NCBI GenBank assembly: GCA_947631965.1
Contig: CANRNL010000006.1
Span: 7,263 to 71,262, forward strand
Source: an uncultured Clostridia bacterium
GTDB lineage: Bacteria; Bacillota; Clostridia; Monoglobales; Monoglobaceae
Length of the DNA stretch: 64,000 bases
Direction of reading: 5' to 3'
Shown: in pieces, positions 788 through 58,995 of the stretch
Layout: each line of letters starts with the position of its first letter
Position numbering within the stretch: the first letter of the stretch is position 1
Notes under the pieces: model-generated
What the model saw: the letters and a program-made list of their open reading frames with translations, nothing else
Database searches by the model: none
What the model was told of the DNA's origin: nothing
Translations under genes and position numbers: made by a program

Positions 788-2398
<1,611 letters not shown>

Positions 2399-2449
2399 CT
2401 TTCTCAGATTGTAGATTTGTTACAAAATTGTTAAATCTGGAAAATAATA

Positions 2450-2479
2450 TTGACAATTCCGACCGTTTAGTGATATAAT
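2450..2479 (+). promoter_or_regulatory. strong extended -10 promoter (TTGACA - 18 bp - TGaTATAAT) with a roughly 150-nt 5' UTR ahead of the SLH gene
   Basis: TTGACA at 2450..2455, TG at 2471..2472, TATAAT at 2474..2479. The leader contains a GAGAGGAGAG...CTCTCCGAGA hairpin, and RBS AAGGAGG precedes the ATG at 2636. Confidence 0.65.
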
Positions 2480-2635
2480 CTGAATAAGTTTAGTGGCGTA
2501 TTGTGCGCAATCGCGCTTCTAAACGAGTTGCGGCGCTTGATATTGCTGAGAGGAGAGCGGTGATTTCAAGTGAAAAACATCTCTCCGAGAAAATTTGAAA
2601 AAAAATTAAAATTATTTATAAGGAGGAATTGAGAC

Positions 2636-5600
2636 ATGAAAAATCTCAAGAAAGTGATTGCTTTGGTTGCAGTATTTGCACTTGTGTTCACTACTGTAAC
2701 AGCGTTTGCATCGAGTTTCGTTGATGTTGATGACAATGCAAACTACATCGAAGCAGTCGAAGCACTTAACAAGCTCGGTATTATTACCGGCGACACGAAC
2801 GACAATGGAGAACCTGTGTATAGACCGGATGACTCTGTAACGAGAGCGGAGATGGCTGCTTTGGTTTCGAGAATGCAGGCCTTCAACGCAAGCTCGCAGT
2901 CGGCAACTCCGTTTACGGATGTTCCCACGACCCACTGGGCATCGGGATATGTTGCAGCTGCTGCACAGACCGGTATTGTTAACGGCTATGGCGACGGAAC
3001 CTTCGGTCCCGAAGATCCCGTTCTGTATGAGCAGGTTATCAAGATGGTAATGGTTACTCTCGGTTATGAGCCTTTTGCGGCTGCTAACGGCGGTTATCCG
3101 ACAGGTTACACCATCGCAGCAAGCAGATATGACGTAACTAAGGACGTTACCGGCGGCGTACCGGGACAGCCTGCTCCGAGAGCTACCATCGCTCAGATTA
3201 TTTATAACGCTATCGATACTCCTATCATGGAACCCTATTACTATGGTACAGGTAGCGAGAACTATGTAATCTACGACGGTTTGGGTAACTTCCCCCGCAG
3301 AACTCTTTTGAGCCAGAACCTTAAGGTTACAAAGCTCAGAGGTCAGCTTATCGACAACGGTATTACGGACATCAATAACAACAACGTAACTATCGACACC
3401 GATGAAGAGAGAACCGTAAGCGTAAGAATTAACGGCGTTTATAACACTGACAATTCCGACTACGCTGATTTCGATGAGAATGATGACAATTACATCAGAG
3501 ATTATCTCGCAGGTGATTCCGGTATCGAGAAGTATATCGGTCAGCAGATAGTTCTCTATGTAAAGGCTGACGAGACAAAGGCATATCCGGAAGTTATTTC
3601 GGCTGCTCCCGAGGCCGGTAAGAACAAGGTTGAATCTTTCACGGTTGACAAGTTCGATAAGGTTGAGCAGAACAACAATACAGACGTTATAAGATATTAC
3701 AGAAACGACACCGACAGAACTTCTACGAAGTGCACACTTCAGGAAGGCTATCACCTCATCTACAACAACGTTGGCGGATATTTGGTTGACGCTGTATTCG
3801 GTGAAGGACAGCCGGTTCAGAAGGATTCTAAGGTTGGCGGTAAAGTAACTCTTTATGATACCGACAGCGTTTCGGGCTATGACGTAGTTATAGTTGAAGT
3901 TGCGGCTACCGCAGTTGTTGACTCTGTTGACGGAAACTTGATTTCGTTCAAGAATTCGCCCGGTGAGAGCGTTTACAGAAATGCAGGTATGCTTGCAAAC
4001 ATCTCGGTTGACGAGAACGATTCTTCGCAGATTATCAACATAACCAAGGACGGCGCTGATGTAGCTTACACCGACCTCGCAGAGTGGGATGTTCTCTCTG
4101 TTATCTGCAACGAAGATTTTGATAACTACTATGATATCAGAGTAATTTCGAACGTTGTTGAGGGTACTATTTCTACACAGTCGGGTTCTGACACATCGGA
4201 TACCGGTTACAAGTACAGAATCGGCGACGGAACATATGATGTAGCTGTAGGCGCTTATGAGGCAGACGGTCTTGAGCCCGGTGATGCAGGTCTGTTCTAT
4301 ATCGACGAGTATGGAAAGATTGCTGCATACAGCCAGGATTACAGCGCAAGCACAGGTAACGGCAACTATGCTTATATCATTAAGGCTGTTGGCGATACCG
4401 ACGACTTTGGCAACAAGACTCTTACCATAAAGATGCTCACCGCTAAAGACGGAATCAGAACCTGGAACGTTGCTTCGAATCTTACAATAAGAGATCACAA
4501 GAACTCTACAAAGGCTAACGAAGCGATATTCGGTACTGCGGATATCAGCAGATATAAGGTTAAGGACGACGATACGCTCGGTGCTACAGCGAATGCACTT
4601 ACCGGTCAGGTAATTAAGTATTCGACCAACTCTTCGAGCCAGATATCGGCTATCGAACTTGTAGCTGATAATGATGACGACAGCAACCACCTCAGTCTGA
4701 TGTATGATTATGGTGACAGCGATGTAACATACGAAGCAGAAGACCAGAGATTTGTTGGTAGCAGGAGAACTTTTGTAGGCGAGAATGCAATCGTATTCTT
4801 CGTAAACGGTGAAAATGATGACAACGCTGAAGTTGGTACAATCGCTGACATCGCAGACAACGAAACATACAATGGCGTATCGCTCTATGATGAAGAGTCT
4901 GAAGGACCGAAGCTTATCGTTATAGATGACGAGAATGCAGCGACAGGTATTTCGACCTCCTCTTCGGCAATCGTTATCGAAGGTGTTGGTACAACCACCA
5001 ACAGCGAGGGTACAGTTGTAACAACTCTCTCGTACTATCAGGATGGTACTCTTAAGGACGCTATGGCTAGCGAGACTATCAATGAAGGAAATAACGTTAG
5101 CATCAGCGAATACAACGAAGGAGATATGGCTCTCATATCGCTCAATGCAAACGGCGAAATCAAGAGCATTAAGCCTATCGTAATGTTCGACAGCGACTAT
5201 GTAAGAGATGACGCTACTCCGGACTTCCCGACCGGTCAGATTTTCAATAACGATACTAAGAACGTTACTGACGAAGGTGTTGCGGTTAAGAAGAGCGGTT
5301 CGAGAATAACCATCACAGATGCGAACGGCGGAAATGAGCGTTCTTACAACATCTCGGGTGCAAATGTTTATGTTTATGATGTAGCTAAGGCAAGAAACAA
5401 CCTGACCGTTGGTTCTACCGGAAGCGTTCTTATAAACCAGACATTGCTCAACGGTTCGTCATTTGGTAAGGATGATGACCTCATCTACAACGTATACACC
5501 AATGATTACGGTACTATTGCTGAGACGCCGGCTTACGCACTTTGCGACTATGTATATGTAAGAACTTATGAAGACGACGTAATTGATGTACTTGTTATCA

Positions 5601-12745: not shown

Positions 12746-14224
12746 GTGCGGAAGTTTATAGACCATATGAAAAAAGAAAAAGATGAGCGTCGATTTGTTT
12801 CGGCGAAGCACAGAAACGTTGAAATAGGGCTTTTTTGCACCGTTGTTCTTTTGCACATATTTAAGTTCTCGTTTTTCGGATTTGAATATTTTCCGTATCT
12901 TGACGACTATGTTCAGTACGGGCTTTATCCCCGTCTGCCAAATCTGTGGAGCGAGGTATTGCTGGGCGGCCCCGGAATTATGTTCAGCCGACCGTTCGCG
13001 GTGTTTTTTGATACTTTTATATGGGGCTGTTTTTGGAATTATCTGTGGGCGGCGGTGATTATAATTGCCGTTATCGGCGGAATTACCGCCGTGCTTTTTA
13101 AACGTTTTTTTGAGCGTATGGACATTGAGGTTTCTCCGCTGTTTATAGTGCTGTTTTTGTTTACTCCTTTGAATTTTGAGGGAACATACTGGATTTCTGC
13201 GTCGAGCCGCGTGGTGGTGTCGCTGTTTTTTACGGCGGCGTCGCTTCACGCGCTCCTCGATTATTGTGACGACGGCAAGCTGCGCTCGTTGGCTGAATTT
13301 GCGATAATCAATCTCATTTCTTACGGGTTTTACGAGCAGACGATAGTGCTGTCGTTTTTTATGATTGTTTACGTCGTGATTTCAAAGAGAAAATGGGCGG
13401 CGCTTTTGCCGATGGCGGTCAACTTGGCTTTGATTGCATCGTATTATATACTTTTTATCGGCGAGAGCAACAACAACGGCAGGATGAACGTAATGTCGCC
13501 CGATGCGCTCCCCGCCTTCTCGCTTACCGTGCTGAAAGAGATTTACACGATTTTTGTGACGCAGGGCGGCAAGATTTTTACGCGCGGATTCCGGCGCGGA
13601 CTGGAAATGATTTTGAATAACGGAGTTTCGGGAGCCGTGTGGGTCGGCGCGGGCGTTTTGCTGTGCGCGGCTTACGCGTTCTTTTCGGGTTTTAAGCCTT
13701 TCGGAAAAATTCGAATCAAAGGACTTGAGATGAATAAGCTGCGTTATGACTTAAAGAGGTTCGGACTTGAAATGCTGCTTGCCGCGCTGTTGTTTTTCGC
13801 GCCGTTCATACCGTTTGTGCTGAGCGGAAATCAGTGGCTTAACTTCCGCAACCTCGTGCCTGTGTCGGTCGGGCTTGCCCTTGCCGTAGACGCTGTTTTC
13901 CGTCTGCTCGTAAAAAACAGACGGGTGCAGGGCATTGTATCGGCGGCGGTGCTGGCGTTATTTTTGATAATGAATGTGTCAGAGCTTTATGACTATCGTT
14001 CCGTTTCGGAGACGGACTATAACCTCGCGCTTAAACTGACCGAAGAGTACCAAAGGACGGGTGAGGAAACCCTTTACTGCGAAAAGCCGTATATAGATTA
14101 TAAGTCGCAGAACGCGGCGTATCATGACCACGTCGTGAGCCAGAGCGACTCGGGCTGGGGCTTTTCCTGTACCGTGCGAGGTCTTACTCACAAGAAAAAC
14201 ATTGTTGTGGAATTTTTGGAATGA
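12746..14224 (+). CDS. polytopic membrane protein, probable GT-C-fold glycosyltransferase
   Basis: About 10 or more hydrophobic segments, a YLDDYVQYG acidic motif in the first loop (as in GT-C enzymes), and a soluble C-terminal tail. The start is uncertain (GTG 12746 or ATG 12767). Confidence 0.5.
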   Translation: MRKFIDHMKKEKDERRFVSAKHRNVEIGLFCTVVLLHIFKFSFFGFEYFPYLDDYVQYGLYPRLPNLWSEVLLGGPGIMFSRPFAVFFDTFIWGCFWNYLWAAVIIIAVIGGITAVLFKRFFERMDIEVSPLFIVLFLFTPLNFEGTYWISASSRVVVSLFFTAASLHALLDYCDDGKLRSLAEFAIINLISYGFYEQTIVLSFFMIVYVVISKRKWAALLPMAVNLALIASYYILFIGESNNNGRMNVMSPDALPAFSLTVLKEIYTIFVTQGGKIFTRGFRRGLEMILNNGVSGAVWVGAGVLLCAAYAFFSGFKPFGKIRIKGLEMNKLRYDLKRFGLEMLLAALLFFAPFIPFVLSGNQWLNFRNLVPVSVGLALAVDAVFRLLVKNRRVQGIVSAAVLALFLIMNVSELYDYRSVSETDYNLALKLTEEYQRTGEETLYCEKPYIDYKSQNAAYHDHVVSQSDSGWGFSCTVRGLTHKKNIVVEFLE

Positions 14225-14275: not shown

Positions 14276-14304
14276 TTGACATATCGAATGTTTTGTTGTA
14301 TAAT
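14276..14304 (+). promoter_or_regulatory. promoter of tRNA-Leu(GAG) (TTGACA - 17 bp - TATAAT)
   Basis: Consensus hexamers at 14276..14281 and 14299..14304, about 22 nt before the tRNA 5' end. Confidence 0.7.
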
Positions 14305-14326: not shown

Positions 14327-14414
14327 GCGGCCGTGGCGGAATAGGCAGACGCGCTACTTTGAGGGGGTAGTGGGCAAAACGCCTGTATGGGTTCAAGTCC
14401 CATCGGCCGCACCA
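14327..14414 (+). tRNA. tRNA-Leu (anticodon GAG), type II with long variable arm, encoded CCA
   Basis: Manual cloverleaf: acceptor GCGGCCG/CGGCCGC; anticodon stem CTACT/GGTAG with loop TTGAGGG; variable arm TGGGCAAAACGCCTGT; T arm ATGGG-TTCAAGT-CCCAT; 3' ACCA. Confidence 0.9.
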
Positions 14415-14863
14415 GCGCCGAAAACGGCGGATTTTTTCGAAGACCTTGCTATGCAAGGTCTTCTTATTTTACCGCCGTTTTCGGCGCTCTTTCGCAAAAA
14501 GCGCAAGTCGCTTTTTGCGAGATTACGCGGCAAAGCCGCGTTTTTTTATTTTTTTCAAAGTTCGCTTTGCTCCGACTTTTTTGCGCTTTGCGCGTTGGTG
14601 CGTCGAGGGCGCCGCACCCTACATCGTCGCGACACGCCCTTTTTGCTTGCTTTGCCCCATTCGGGCAAAGGCGCGCTTTCGGGCGGTCGCTTCGAATGAA
14701 CACTTAATGAGCAAGCTATATGCTTGCGAATTTAGTGTGAATTGTGCCCTGTTGGGTACTCTTTCCCAAAAAGCGCAAGTCGCTTTTTGGGAGCCCTGTA
14801 AAATTATAACAAAAGGATAGCACGCCCATTTGGTTGTACGGGACGGCGCCATCGACGTCCCGT
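14415..14863. repeat. modular hairpin-rich non-coding repeat tract (locus A), same family as 45499..46376 and 58965..58995
   Basis: Shares near-identical modules with locus B: AAAAGCGcaagtCGCTTTT hairpins; AGATTnCGCGGC...GCCGCG; CAAAGTTCGCTTTGCTCCGAC; CCCTACATCGTCGCGACACGCCCTTTTTGCTTGCTTTGCCC.ATTCGGGCAAAG; TCGAATGAACACTTAATGAGCAAG...GAATTTAGTGTGAATTGTGCCC.GTTGGGTAC; and CCATTTGGTTGTACGGGACGGCGCC.TCGACGTCCCGT. Short ORFs occur in every frame on both strands, with no coding signal. Confidence 0.85.
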
Positions 14864-14943
14864 CTTATGTAAAATATTTGTAATTTTAATATCGATATTT
14901 TGTAAAAGTCAGGTTTGACGGCGTAAACGGCAAATTTGCCGCA

Positions 14944-14972
14944 TTGAAAATATTATTGATATGTGGTACAAT
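14944..14972 (+). promoter_or_regulatory. promoter of the LytTR/HK operon (TTGAAA - 17 bp - TGgTACAAT)
   Basis: Hexamers at 14944..14949 and 14967..14972, with the TG at 14964..14965. Confidence 0.55.
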
Positions 14973-45411: not shown

Positions 45412-45498
45412 GCCGCTGTGATGGAATTGGCAGACGTAGCGGACTCAAAATCCGCCGGTAGCGATACCGTGCCGGTTCGACTCCGGCCAGCGGCACCA
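45412..45498 (+). tRNA. tRNA-Leu (anticodon CAA), type II, encoded CCA
   Basis: Acceptor GCCGCTG/CAGCGGC; anticodon stem GCGGA/TCCGC with loop CTCAAAA; long variable arm CGGTAGCGATACCGT; T arm GCCGG-TTCGACT-CCGGC; 3' ACCA. Confidence 0.9.
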
Positions 45499-45910
45499 GC
45501 GAAACGGCAAGCCTTTTGTGCTTGCCGTTTTTTCTTTTGAAAAAACGGGCGCGCTTGCAGGCTGCCGTTTCGCTTTCCCGAAAAGCGCAAGTCGCTTTTC
45601 GGGAGATTGCGCGGCTTCGCCGCGGTTATTTCTATTTTTGCAAAGTTCGCTTTGCTCCGACGAATTTTTTTGCAAAAAATCCGTCTTTCGCCCGCTTCCT
45701 TGCTCCTTCGAATGAACACTTAATGAGCAAGTTTTATATGCTTGCGAATTTAGTGTGAATTGTGCCCCGTTGGGTACTTTTTCCCAAAAAGTCTTTAGGA
45801 CTTTTTGGGAGCCCTATGGGAGCGGCTTTTAACGCCGTTTTCGGCGCGCTTGCAGGCTGCCGTTTCGCTTTCTTTTCTTGCTATCAAGAAAAGAATATAT
45901 CCCCGCTCAT
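45499..45910. repeat. modular hairpin-rich non-coding repeat tract (locus B, unique-order part)
   Basis: Contains the same modules as 14486..14790 in a partly different order. See the findings for the alignment landmarks. Confidence 0.85.
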
Positions 45911-46376
45911 GCGGAGCGTGGGCATTGCGGGCGAACAAGGTTCGCTCCCTACATCGTCGCGACACGCCCTTTTTGCTTGCTTTGCCCTATTCGGGCAAAG
46001 TCGCGCTTTTGAGCGGTCGCTCCTCTCCGACAAAAATCTGTGGATTTTTGTCGGTTAAAATAAATAAATTGTCCCCATTTGGTTGTACGGGACGGCGCCC
46101 TCGACGTCCCGTGCCCGCGCGGAGCGCGGGCATTGCGGGCGAACAAGGTTCGCACCCTACATCGTCGCGACACGCCCTTTTTGCTTGCTTTGCCCTATTC
46201 GGGCAAAGTCGCGCTTTTGGGCGGTCGCTCCTCTCCGACAAAAATCTGTGGATTTTTGTCGGTTAAAATAAATAAATTGTCCCCATTTGGTTGTACGGGA
46301 CGGCGCCCTCGACGTCCCGTGCCCGCGCGGAGCGTGGGCATTGCGGGCGAACAAGGTTCGCCCCTACATTGTCGCA
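45911..46376. repeat. tandem repeat, 208-bp unit, about 2.2 copies
   Basis: GGCATTGCGGGCGAACAAGGTTCGC starts at 45921, 46129 and 46337, an exact 208-bp period. By eye, units 1 and 2 differ at about three positions. Each unit holds at least five hairpins. Confidence 0.95.
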
Positions 46377-46611
46377 ACTCACGCTTTTCGAGAGTTATTA
46401 TACGACTTTTGGCGGTGCGCTTGCGGATTTGCTTTGCGGATTTCGGCGGCATATCAAGCCCCGACGCGGGGACTGATTTTTTAAAAAATATTTTTTCTGT
46501 ACAGCTTGCACAAAAATTATTCCTAAATTTATAAAAACTTCAAAATTTTTGTATAGAATCACTAAAAATCGCTCAAATTGAAAAATATTTTTTTAAGGCT
46601 TTTTTTACTTA

Positions 46612-58964: not shown

Positions 58965-58995
58965 TTTGTACGGGACGGCGCCCTCGACGTCCCGT
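58965..58995. repeat. solo copy of the ACGGGACG-GCGCCCTCGA-CGTCCCGT hairpin element
   Basis: TTTGTACGGGACGGCGCCCTCGACGTCCCGT is identical in its core to 46084..46112 and 46292..46320, and one base different from 14835..14863. Confidence 0.9.

Follow-up and report, generated by a model that had tools for sequence, protein, structure and literature searches.

In a 64,000-nt stretch of DNA from an uncultured Clostridia bacterium (the window; C6:7263-71262 of a 1.95-Mb, 48-contig assembly that is only 81% complete), the tRNA-Leu(GAG) gene is followed directly by a tract, here called locus A (14415-14861), that is one patchwork cluster of short hairpin-forming repeats, some of them of the repetitive extragenic palindromic (REP) type. 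Locus A is neither a structured RNA gene nor a simple duplication; it is DNA of a known general kind in a little-studied lineage. Most probably it represents one cluster of a genome-wide repeat mosaic, resembling REPs and bacterial interspersed mosaic elements (BIMEs), that lies in a tRNA 3' flank. An earlier note on this DNA had recognized two loci of one repeat family, locus A and a second tract behind tRNA-Leu(CAA), here locus B. This was an undercount: when genome-wide copies were sought by BLAST of both loci against the whole assembly, and loci counted with 14 module queries, about 62 such clusters were found in this genome.

With tRNA positions assigned by ARAGORN, the parts of the two loci and their immediate surroundings are as follows.

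14276-14304, plus strand: promoter-like site of tRNA-Leu(GAG), TTGACA-17-TATAAT, 12 of 12 consensus matches
14327-14414, plus strand: tRNA-Leu(GAG), CCA encoded; the mosaic begins at the following base
14415-14487, plus strand: module A1, with a 16-bp outer palindrome (arms 14415-14430 and 14472-14487)
14487-14521, plus strand: module H1a, 11-bp hairpin CGCAAAAAGCG-caagt-CGCTTTTTGCG at 14493-14519, CGC/GCG-base subtype
14525-14556, plus strand: module H2, CGCGGC-aaa-GCCGCG (14526-14540) with a T-run, a second terminator-like site
14556-14576, plus strand: module A4, CAAAGTTCGCTTTGCTCCGAC, the right half (a truncated copy) of the T1d tRNA/tmRNA trailer hairpin
14597-14622, minus strand: REP-type element, reading GTAG-GGTGCG-GCGCCCTCGA-CGCACC on the minus strand
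14624-14690, plus strand: module A6, starting with TCGTCGCGAC, as T1 trailers do; 18 copies in this genome
14691-14759, plus strand: module A7, long imperfect hairpin ACACTTAATGAGCAAGC-tatat-GCTTGCGAATTTAGTGT; 15 copies in this genome, found in this genus only
14759-14798, plus strand: module H1b, hairpin CCCAAAAAGCG-caagt-CGCTTTTTGGG at 14765-14791, CCC/GGG-base subtype
14836-14861, plus strand: REP-type element, GTAC-GGGACG-GCGCCATCGA-CGTCCC, hairpin at 14840-14861
14944-14972, plus strand: promoter-like site of the downstream LytTR/GHKL two-component genes, outside the repeat; marks the end of the tract neighbourhood
45412-46390, plus strand: locus B, comprising tRNA-Leu(CAA) (45412-45498), its own trailer and the same module set reordered (repeat part 45499-46390)

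Two sites in locus A combine a GC-rich hairpin with a T-run in the manner of an intrinsic terminator. The first is a hairpin enclosed by the A1 palindrome (14439-14463) and followed by TTATTTT (to 14470); the second, about 60 nt beyond the A1 terminator, is H2 (14525-14541) with TTTTTTT. The H1, A6, A7 and REP copies have no T-run after the hairpin. From these features the A1 inner hairpin and its T-run are predicted to be the intrinsic terminator of tRNA-Leu(GAG), and transcription of the tRNA would end within the first 140 nt, the remainder of the tract being repeat DNA. In module A6, a closing stem (GCGAC.ACGCCC/GGGCG.GTCGC) encloses an inner hairpin, TTTGCCC-cattc-GGGCAAA.

The dispersal of the modules identifies locus A as part of a larger system. 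Each is present between 2 and about 37 times, spread over as many as 20 contigs, on both strands and in many orders. The loci are mostly intergenic (5 of the 62 lie inside crude gene calls and 10 at contig ends), and 26 of the 47 in scorable gaps occupy convergent or divergent gaps, a class that makes up 25% of all gaps. As in BIMEs, the 62 loci are strings of modules in which REPs alternate in orientation and are joined by a few other conserved motifs. In an alignment of 13 copies of the A6-A7-H1 block, the ends are sharp and show neither the terminal inverted repeats nor the target-site duplications of miniature inverted-repeat transposable elements, and no constant terminal modules were found. 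Module orientation relative to GC skew or the gene-strand majority, examined for a replication-strand bias such as transposition of single-stranded DNA would leave, was even overall (86:86), with a weak opposite trend at loci not linked to tRNAs (37:66; several modules of one locus do not count as independent). Arrays in tandem, repeating every 130 bp and composed of an A6 fragment and an H1c hairpin, reach contig ends at C29:20672-21036 and C40:1-256. Several more contigs end in H1 copies; thus, the repeats break the assembly. A distant-mode blastn search of phage records returned no match, and module A7 is absent from the viral contigs of IMG/VR. The exact REP pattern is present on 26 predicted viral contigs in that database (L229-L254), with at most 3 copies each, whether in phage DNA proper or in host flanks; exchange by way of phages is conceivable.

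According to the earlier note, the loop of the GGGACG hairpin recurs, inverted, on a different stem, GGTGCG. The sharing of the 10-nt loop is real; however, the two hairpins share it because they are one REP-type element on opposite strands. The unit consists of a 5'-GTA(G/C) head, a 6-bp stem, an invariant 10-nt loop, GCGCCCTCGA, and the complementary stem. The two copies in locus A are mutually inverted (14836-14861 vs 14597-14622): in plus-strand reading the first hairpin is GGTGCG-TCGAGGGCGC-CGCACC at 14597-14618, and the loop of the plus-strand copy, GCGCCATCGA, is one base off the family consensus seen in locus B. A regular expression for the element gave 48 matches in this genome (25 with GTAG and 18 with GTAC heads), 47 of them family copies. 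The congener, a second species of the genus (G001), has 20; the exact pattern occurs 40 and 20 times, respectively. Two stem variants in this genome differ at two fully compensated pairs. A second REP class, GTAG-GGGCGAAC-CGT-GTTCGCCC, has about 45 copies and is present in locus B, and GC-rich hairpins headed by GTAG number 83, compared with 8-32 for control tetramers. In the published definition (Nunvar et al. 2010, PMC2817692), a REP has a GT(A/G)G head and a palindrome whose middle is non-complementary, and its dimorphic variants remain complementary. Here, such a head stands directly 5' of the palindrome, with GTAC as a deviation, and the other attributes are likewise present: a short palindrome with an unpaired middle, multiple extragenic copies and complementarity kept among variants. 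With regard to the REPIN, a mobile REP doublet in which two inverted REPs and a short conserved spacer form one long hairpin, the copies in locus A are separated by 214 nt that hold three other modules, and many copies in the genome are solitary; close inverted pairs, about 46-50 nt apart, exist for example at C11:3996/4042, C4:80800/80847 and C23:23756/23806. One solitary plus-strand copy, GTAC-GGGACG-GCGCCCTCGA-CGTCCC, lies elsewhere in the window (58968-58993; C6:66230-66255), in a convergent gap far from tRNAs.

The same element is found well outside the genus. Among 121 genomes of the family, 14 carry the exact pattern, with 11-49 copies in seven species of the genus labelled Monoglobus and 1-2 in a few others. 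The exact 26-nt pattern was found in at least 120 stretches from many metagenome-assembled genomes of gut Clostridia and one isolate, spanning several families; carriers include Monoglobus, Faecousia, Acutalibacteraceae, Oscillospiraceae, Ruminococcus and Hominimerdicola aceti. Across 90 copies taken from other genomes, 7 Watson-Crick-compensated forms occur at the two free positions of the stem, and 89 of the 90 can pair. Thus, REP covariation is robust and reflects multiple events. None of 90 copies in other taxa lies within 700 nt downstream of a tRNA, so the REP alone is not tRNA-linked there, and the tRNA habit belongs to the trailer, H1 and A7 modules.

In relatives the REP is tied to genes resembling those of REP-associated tyrosine transposases (RAYTs), and the copies in this genus look orphaned. 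In four genomes of the Monoglobus genus, a RAYT-like paralog carries two inverted REP copies (GTAGGGGACGGCGCCCTCGACGTCCC) about 178 nt apart inside its open reading frame (ORF); they encode VVGDGALDVP and SGTSRAPSPT, and the frame stays open.

L101 993-1505 (G007:C1), also L102, L103 and L104: RAYT-like ORF with internal REPs

The RAYT-like protein of the Monoglobus genome G007 scores 57.8 bits against the NCBIfam model 'REP-associated tyrosine transposase', below the 80-bit cut-off. Other RAYT-like genes are adjoined by related or different GTAG hairpins, the gene in G049 having a related REP upstream, and the canonical arrangement, in which two inverted REPs flank the rayt gene, was not seen. 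A Y1_Tnp (PF01797) search found no Y1 transposase in this genome, tBLASTn with a Monoglobus RAYT-like protein gave only a spurious match, in a histidine kinase, and a profile built from five RAYT-like proteins matched 56 of the 121 family genomes and neither this genome nor the congener; because the assembly is 81% complete, the absence of a RAYT from this genome is unproven. Reverse transcriptase (PF00078) is absent from both genomes. When the 14 modules were sought around 20 Y1 loci (this genome and 40 relatives were searched for PF01797), none matched, and the Y1 gene of the congener is an ordinary IS200 with ends unrelated to the modules. The REP copies of this genus probably no longer transpose and are reshuffled by host recombination only.

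The mosaics are strongly associated with the 3' ends of tRNA genes. Clusters were considered tRNA-linked when they lie within 250 nt downstream of a terminal tRNA; 12 of 25 terminal tRNAs carry one, whereas among about 1318 other gaps 50 do (odds ratio 23, p = 1e-10), and 9 of the 10 largest loci are tRNA-linked. At the 13 loci linked to a tRNA or tmRNA, 68 modules point the same way as the RNA gene and 4 the opposite way. All four A1 copies in this genome abut CCA, behind tRNA-Leu-GAG, Pro-TGG, Ser-GCT and Pro-CGG, and a second cassette family, T1a-d, adjoins the CCA of about 12 tRNAs and the tmRNA. Full-length cassettes start 0-1 nt after CCA in 4/4 cases for A1 and 8/9 for T1, behind unrelated tRNAs and the tmRNA; truncated pieces are also found within mosaics and away from tRNAs. 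The two junctions in the window are 14414|14415 and 45498|45499. At the tmRNA itself (3' end ...CACCTCCACCA at C11:69573, in C11:69440-69800), T1d follows directly, then other modules and a REP copy. The position is not peculiar to repeats: counting unique terminators as well, a terminator stem begins 0-2 nt after CCA in 16 (plus 4 with A1) of the 25 terminal tRNAs, compared with 4.4% of random positions. The same 0-2-nt habit is seen in Monoglobus G007 (L255-L284), where an A1-like architecture followed by an H1-like hairpin, both diverged in sequence, stands behind several tRNAs. A stem start 0-2 nt after CCA may thus be a lineage-specific rule of tRNA 3'-end formation.

Comparison with the congener indicates that the tRNA flanks turn over. 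There, a plain terminator and a gene for a 545-aa protein stand behind tRNA-Leu(GAG), with no modules, and homology to the window resumes only at about 14855-14868. Locus A is thus specific to its lineage and younger than the split of the two species. The 545-aa protein (L034, G001:C12:26500-30700, reverse 1227-3280), whose gene is absent from the window, looks secreted and has C-terminal copper-amine-oxidase-N-like repeats; on the other side of the tRNA, a 492-aa ORF (window 12746-14224) has no Pfam match and an ortholog in the congener that is 87% identical at the DNA level. The congener shows the same tRNA linkage, and its orthologous tRNAs carry different trailers, with non-homologous cassettes at the same junction for Tyr, Pro-TGG and Trp:

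tRNA-Tyr trailer: T1a in this genome, an A1 variant in the congener
tRNA-Pro-TGG trailer: A1 in this genome, T1d in the congener
tRNA-Trp trailer: T1b in this genome, T1c in the congener
tRNA-Cys trailer: T1c in this genome, a plain terminator in the congener
tRNA-Pro-GGG trailer: T1a in this genome, T1b in the congener

A cassette can also abut an incomplete tRNA, as A1 does with a tRNA 3' fragment in G007. Fragments of this kind (25-45 nt, ending in CCA) lie beside foreign-looking coding DNA at L043 ~1085-1110 (G001:C5) and L003 (G007:C1, ~118070) and look like attachment-site remnants of tRNA-integrated elements. Each is followed by trailer cassettes; thus, the cassette stays with the displaced tRNA end.

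Such exact junctions would also be produced if a dedicated mechanism put A1 and T1a-d precisely on the CCA end of any tRNA or tmRNA gene, with the mosaic as secondary debris and flanks exchanged between unrelated tRNAs within a genus. Targeting of this kind could involve a structure-specific nuclease, a recombinase or a transposase that recognizes the acceptor end in single-stranded DNA, or recombination with a cDNA whose synthesis switches template, passing from the 5' end of a processed trailer RNA to a mature tRNA at its CCA-3' end. The near-constant start of full-length A1 and T1 copies, the strict polarity of the modules relative to the tRNA, the exchanged cassettes on the Tyr, Pro-TGG and Trp tRNAs of the two species and the A1 copy at the G007 fragment are all in keeping with it. 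Nevertheless, unique terminators in both this genome and G007 begin at the same distance, so selection on 3'-end architecture suffices; no reverse transcriptase, RAYT or Y1 transposase was found in this genome; CCA alone is common to the target ends; and truncated cassette pieces lie inside mosaics and away from tRNAs. Because the unique terminators share the junction, a lineage-wide functional constraint is favoured as its cause, under which terminators borne by repeats would be recruited and exchanged, and we consider targeted insertion unlikely.

The earlier note also held that homologous hairpins keep pairing while their sequences change, and this is borne out most strongly by the REP, the A1 outer palindrome and H1. 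Its quoted hairpins are present, with small coordinate slips (14493-14519 for the H1a hairpin it placed at 14492-14518), as is the contrast between CGCGGC-aaa-GCCGCG in locus A and CGCGGC-ttc-GCCGCG in locus B. An alignment of H1, the AAAAAG hairpin, contains 65 copies from the two congeners, 44 of them distinct, and 96.3% of its cells pair. Four of the 11 pairs change on both sides, with CG/GC at pair 8:32, CG/UA and GC/CG at the top, and AU to GC or CG once each; 0/500 shuffles reach the observed pairing or covariation. Among the 44 distinct rows, seven are chimeras whose left and right sides come from different base subtypes, which is direct evidence for recombination within the hairpin. 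The A1 outer palindrome exists in four sequence versions, each with 14-18 bp paired and one of them at the orthologous tRNA-Pro(CGG) site of the congener, around an inner terminator stem that is invariant among versions. These data suggest that hairpin pairing is actively kept, albeit with few independent covariation events within this genome. Selection on an RNA could be the cause; however, paired changes of this kind would equally result from hairpin recognition at the DNA level, for which REP and RAYT are the paradigm, or from quasi-palindromes being corrected by template switching. The H1 mismatches show no strand asymmetry, with G.U in 5 and A.C in 4 distinct rows. The note took the paired substitutions as a signature of selection on secondary structure. 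Maintained pairing stands; a single tRNA-linked structured RNA does not, the units being small, independent, dispersed hairpins. In a comparison of orthologous tRNA-Leu flanks, as the note had proposed, the congener's site lacks the whole locus.

A role for the host could also account for this pairing. The modules could be RNA elements of tRNA trailers (terminator back-ups, RNase sites, exonuclease blocks or insulators that shield the LytTR operon from read-through) kept by selection on RNA structure, with dispersal as a by-product. Two terminator-like hairpins do stand directly behind a tRNA with a consensus promoter, the modules are co-oriented with tRNAs, H1, REP and A1 covary, modules are more conserved between species than the coding flanks, and the A1 architecture with an H1-like hairpin recurs, in diverged sequence, behind Monoglobus tRNAs. 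Yet 49 of the 62 loci are not beside a tRNA or tmRNA, and modules there often run against the flanking genes; H1, A6, A7 and REP have no T-runs; the congener's tRNA-Leu(GAG) does without the entire locus; and the G.U to A.C balance in H1 gives no sign of an RNA strand. Moreover, the right arm of A1 would be untranscribed if the inner terminator works, yet it covaries with the left arm. We therefore regard this host-function reading as unlikely.

It is very improbable that locus A is one large structured RNA gene of about 450 nt with locus B as its paralog. The compensatory changes and the very low folding energy (z = -12.1 for the 456-nt tract vs dinucleotide shuffles) would suit such a gene, but the energy comes from a string of local hairpins, each module is found on its own at between 2 and about 37 places, with orders varying and both strands used, two intrinsic-terminator-like sites fall in the first 130 nt, and the congener has no such locus at its orthologous site. 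Rfam 15 scans of both loci (E <= 1) passed only the two tRNAs, all other scores being far below the gathering threshold.

Comparison of the two loci confirms the earlier observation of near-identical blocks in different order, on which a repeat finder (families D10, D12, D13, D17 and D19) and direct reading agree. In locus A, CCCTACATCGTCGC...GGGCAAAG (14617-14670) precedes TTCGAATGAACACTT...GTTGGGTAC (14691-14759), whereas in locus B the second block comes first (45709-45777) and the first follows it twice (45947- and 46155-). Locus B further contains a 208-bp tandem duplication (45911-46326) and three copies of the second REP class (GGGCGAAC..GTTCGCCC-CTAC). The 208-bp unit consists of REP-1, A6, a hairpin and REP-2, is duplicated at 99% identity and is followed by a partial third unit. 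A single recent segmental duplication linking A and B, followed by drift and rearrangement, which the note had named as an outcome that would overturn its interpretation, is excluded: although five blocks are common to both at 82-97% identity, all nine locus-A modules have their best match outside locus B, A1, H1a, H2 and H3 have no qualifying match within it, and the A6-A7-H1b block (about 190 nt) travels as a unit that is 96-98% identical on C11, C21 and in the congener. Mosaic assembly, as the note proposed, is thus upheld by these outside matches, by the many orders on both strands and by the chimeric H1 rows.

For a mosaic of dispersed repeats, the chain at locus A would have arisen through repeated rounds of copying and of ectopic recombination that involved the roughly 62 loci; it would postdate the split from the congener and not stem from a duplication of locus B. 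A1, next to CCA, holds the predicted tRNA terminator and H2 a second terminator-like hairpin; two H1 hairpins, a truncated trailer piece, the A6-A7-H1 block and the inverted REPs complete the chain. The REP copies would belong to a class that is common across gut Clostridia and, in Monoglobus, linked to RAYT-like Y1 transposase genes. Pairing could be kept on the DNA, by recognition, by extrusion of hairpins or by correction of quasi-palindromes through template switching, on the RNA, by termination, protection or processing of the tRNA trailer, or at both levels. If a terminator stem must begin 0-2 nt after CCA in this lineage, where tRNA 3' flanks are long and gene-free, repeat-borne terminators would for that reason be retained there and more modules would pile up behind them with the same polarity.

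Several observations weigh against this account. Module copies from different species resemble each other as closely as copies within either one (A7, 94.1/94.0/94.0%; A6, 82.5/81.9/81.4%), whereas orthologous, mostly coding flanks are only 87-88% identical; such similarity is hard to fit to neutral orphan DNA and suggests that module sequences are constrained or were recently exchanged between species. The exact CCA junction of the unrelated cassettes A1 and T1 on orthologous tRNAs is unexplained by homologous recombination. No transposase or other module-moving enzyme was identified in the 81% complete genome, and termination at A1 and H2, like the untranscribed state of the remaining tract, is a prediction only.

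Modular intergenic repeats made of hairpin units in variable number and order include the Neisseria intergenic mosaic elements (NIMEs), in which dRS3 brackets RS units, and the pneumococcal BOX elements (boxA-boxB-boxC). These have no sequence relation to the present modules and possess fixed terminal modules (dRS3; boxA and boxC), whereas no constant ends are seen here. A tRNA-end preference is not known for either. A close parallel is the REP/REPIN and RAYT system of Stenotrophomonas, Pseudomonas and E. coli (Nunvar et al. 2010, PMC2817692; Bertels & Rainey 2011, PMC3116915), with which the repeats share a GT(A/G)G-type head immediately preceding a GC-rich palindrome that is short and unpaired in the middle, extragenic copies numbering in the tens and lying on either strand, dimorphic variants in which complementary changes preserve the palindrome, mosaic clustering and, in relatives, a link to RAYT-like Y1 transposase genes. 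They differ in that the hosts are Clostridia of the Monoglobus family, about 40% of heads are GTAC, neither the genome nor its congener has a RAYT, the REP lies twice inside a RAYT-like ORF in the Monoglobus genus rather than flanking it, and the exact 26-nt pattern spans several Clostridia families, unlike described REPs, which are lineage-specific. The BIMEs of E. coli (as cited in PMC2817692) similarly contain REPs of alternating orientation and a few motifs in variable order and number, with tandem multiplication of units as in the 208-bp repeat of locus B; in contrast, most of the length here is made up of non-REP hairpin modules (H1, A6, A7 and the T1/A1 trailers), and clusters gather behind tRNA and tmRNA genes with fixed polarity. 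In the archaeon Methanopyrus kandleri, roughly half of the tRNA genes have a palindromic motif some 10 bp downstream, interpreted as a possible 3'-maturation signal (Tong et al. 2017, PMC5217627). There, too, many unrelated tRNA genes have a palindrome in common at a short, fixed distance behind them, but it is a single short motif, with no mosaic, no dispersal away from tRNAs and no evidence of exchange between loci. New here are the anchoring at tRNA/tmRNA ends with cassette exchange, the REPs inside RAYT-like genes and the conservation of a REP across families.

REP and BIME repeats are textbook features of Proteobacteria and have barely been described in gut Clostridia. The present analysis adds a REP class common to several Clostridia families, genomes that keep dozens of copies without a RAYT, and a strong polar association of repeat mosaics with tRNA/tmRNA 3' ends, where cassettes are exchanged between the orthologous tRNAs of two species. 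In practical terms, assemblies break at such loci, and screens for covariation can mistake them for large structured RNAs. Should a mechanism and not only selection lie behind the tRNA-end habit, bacterial non-coding DNA would have a previously undescribed means of moving; should selection be the cause, the habit would point to a lineage-specific 3'-end rule, in which the terminator stem runs from +1 after CCA.

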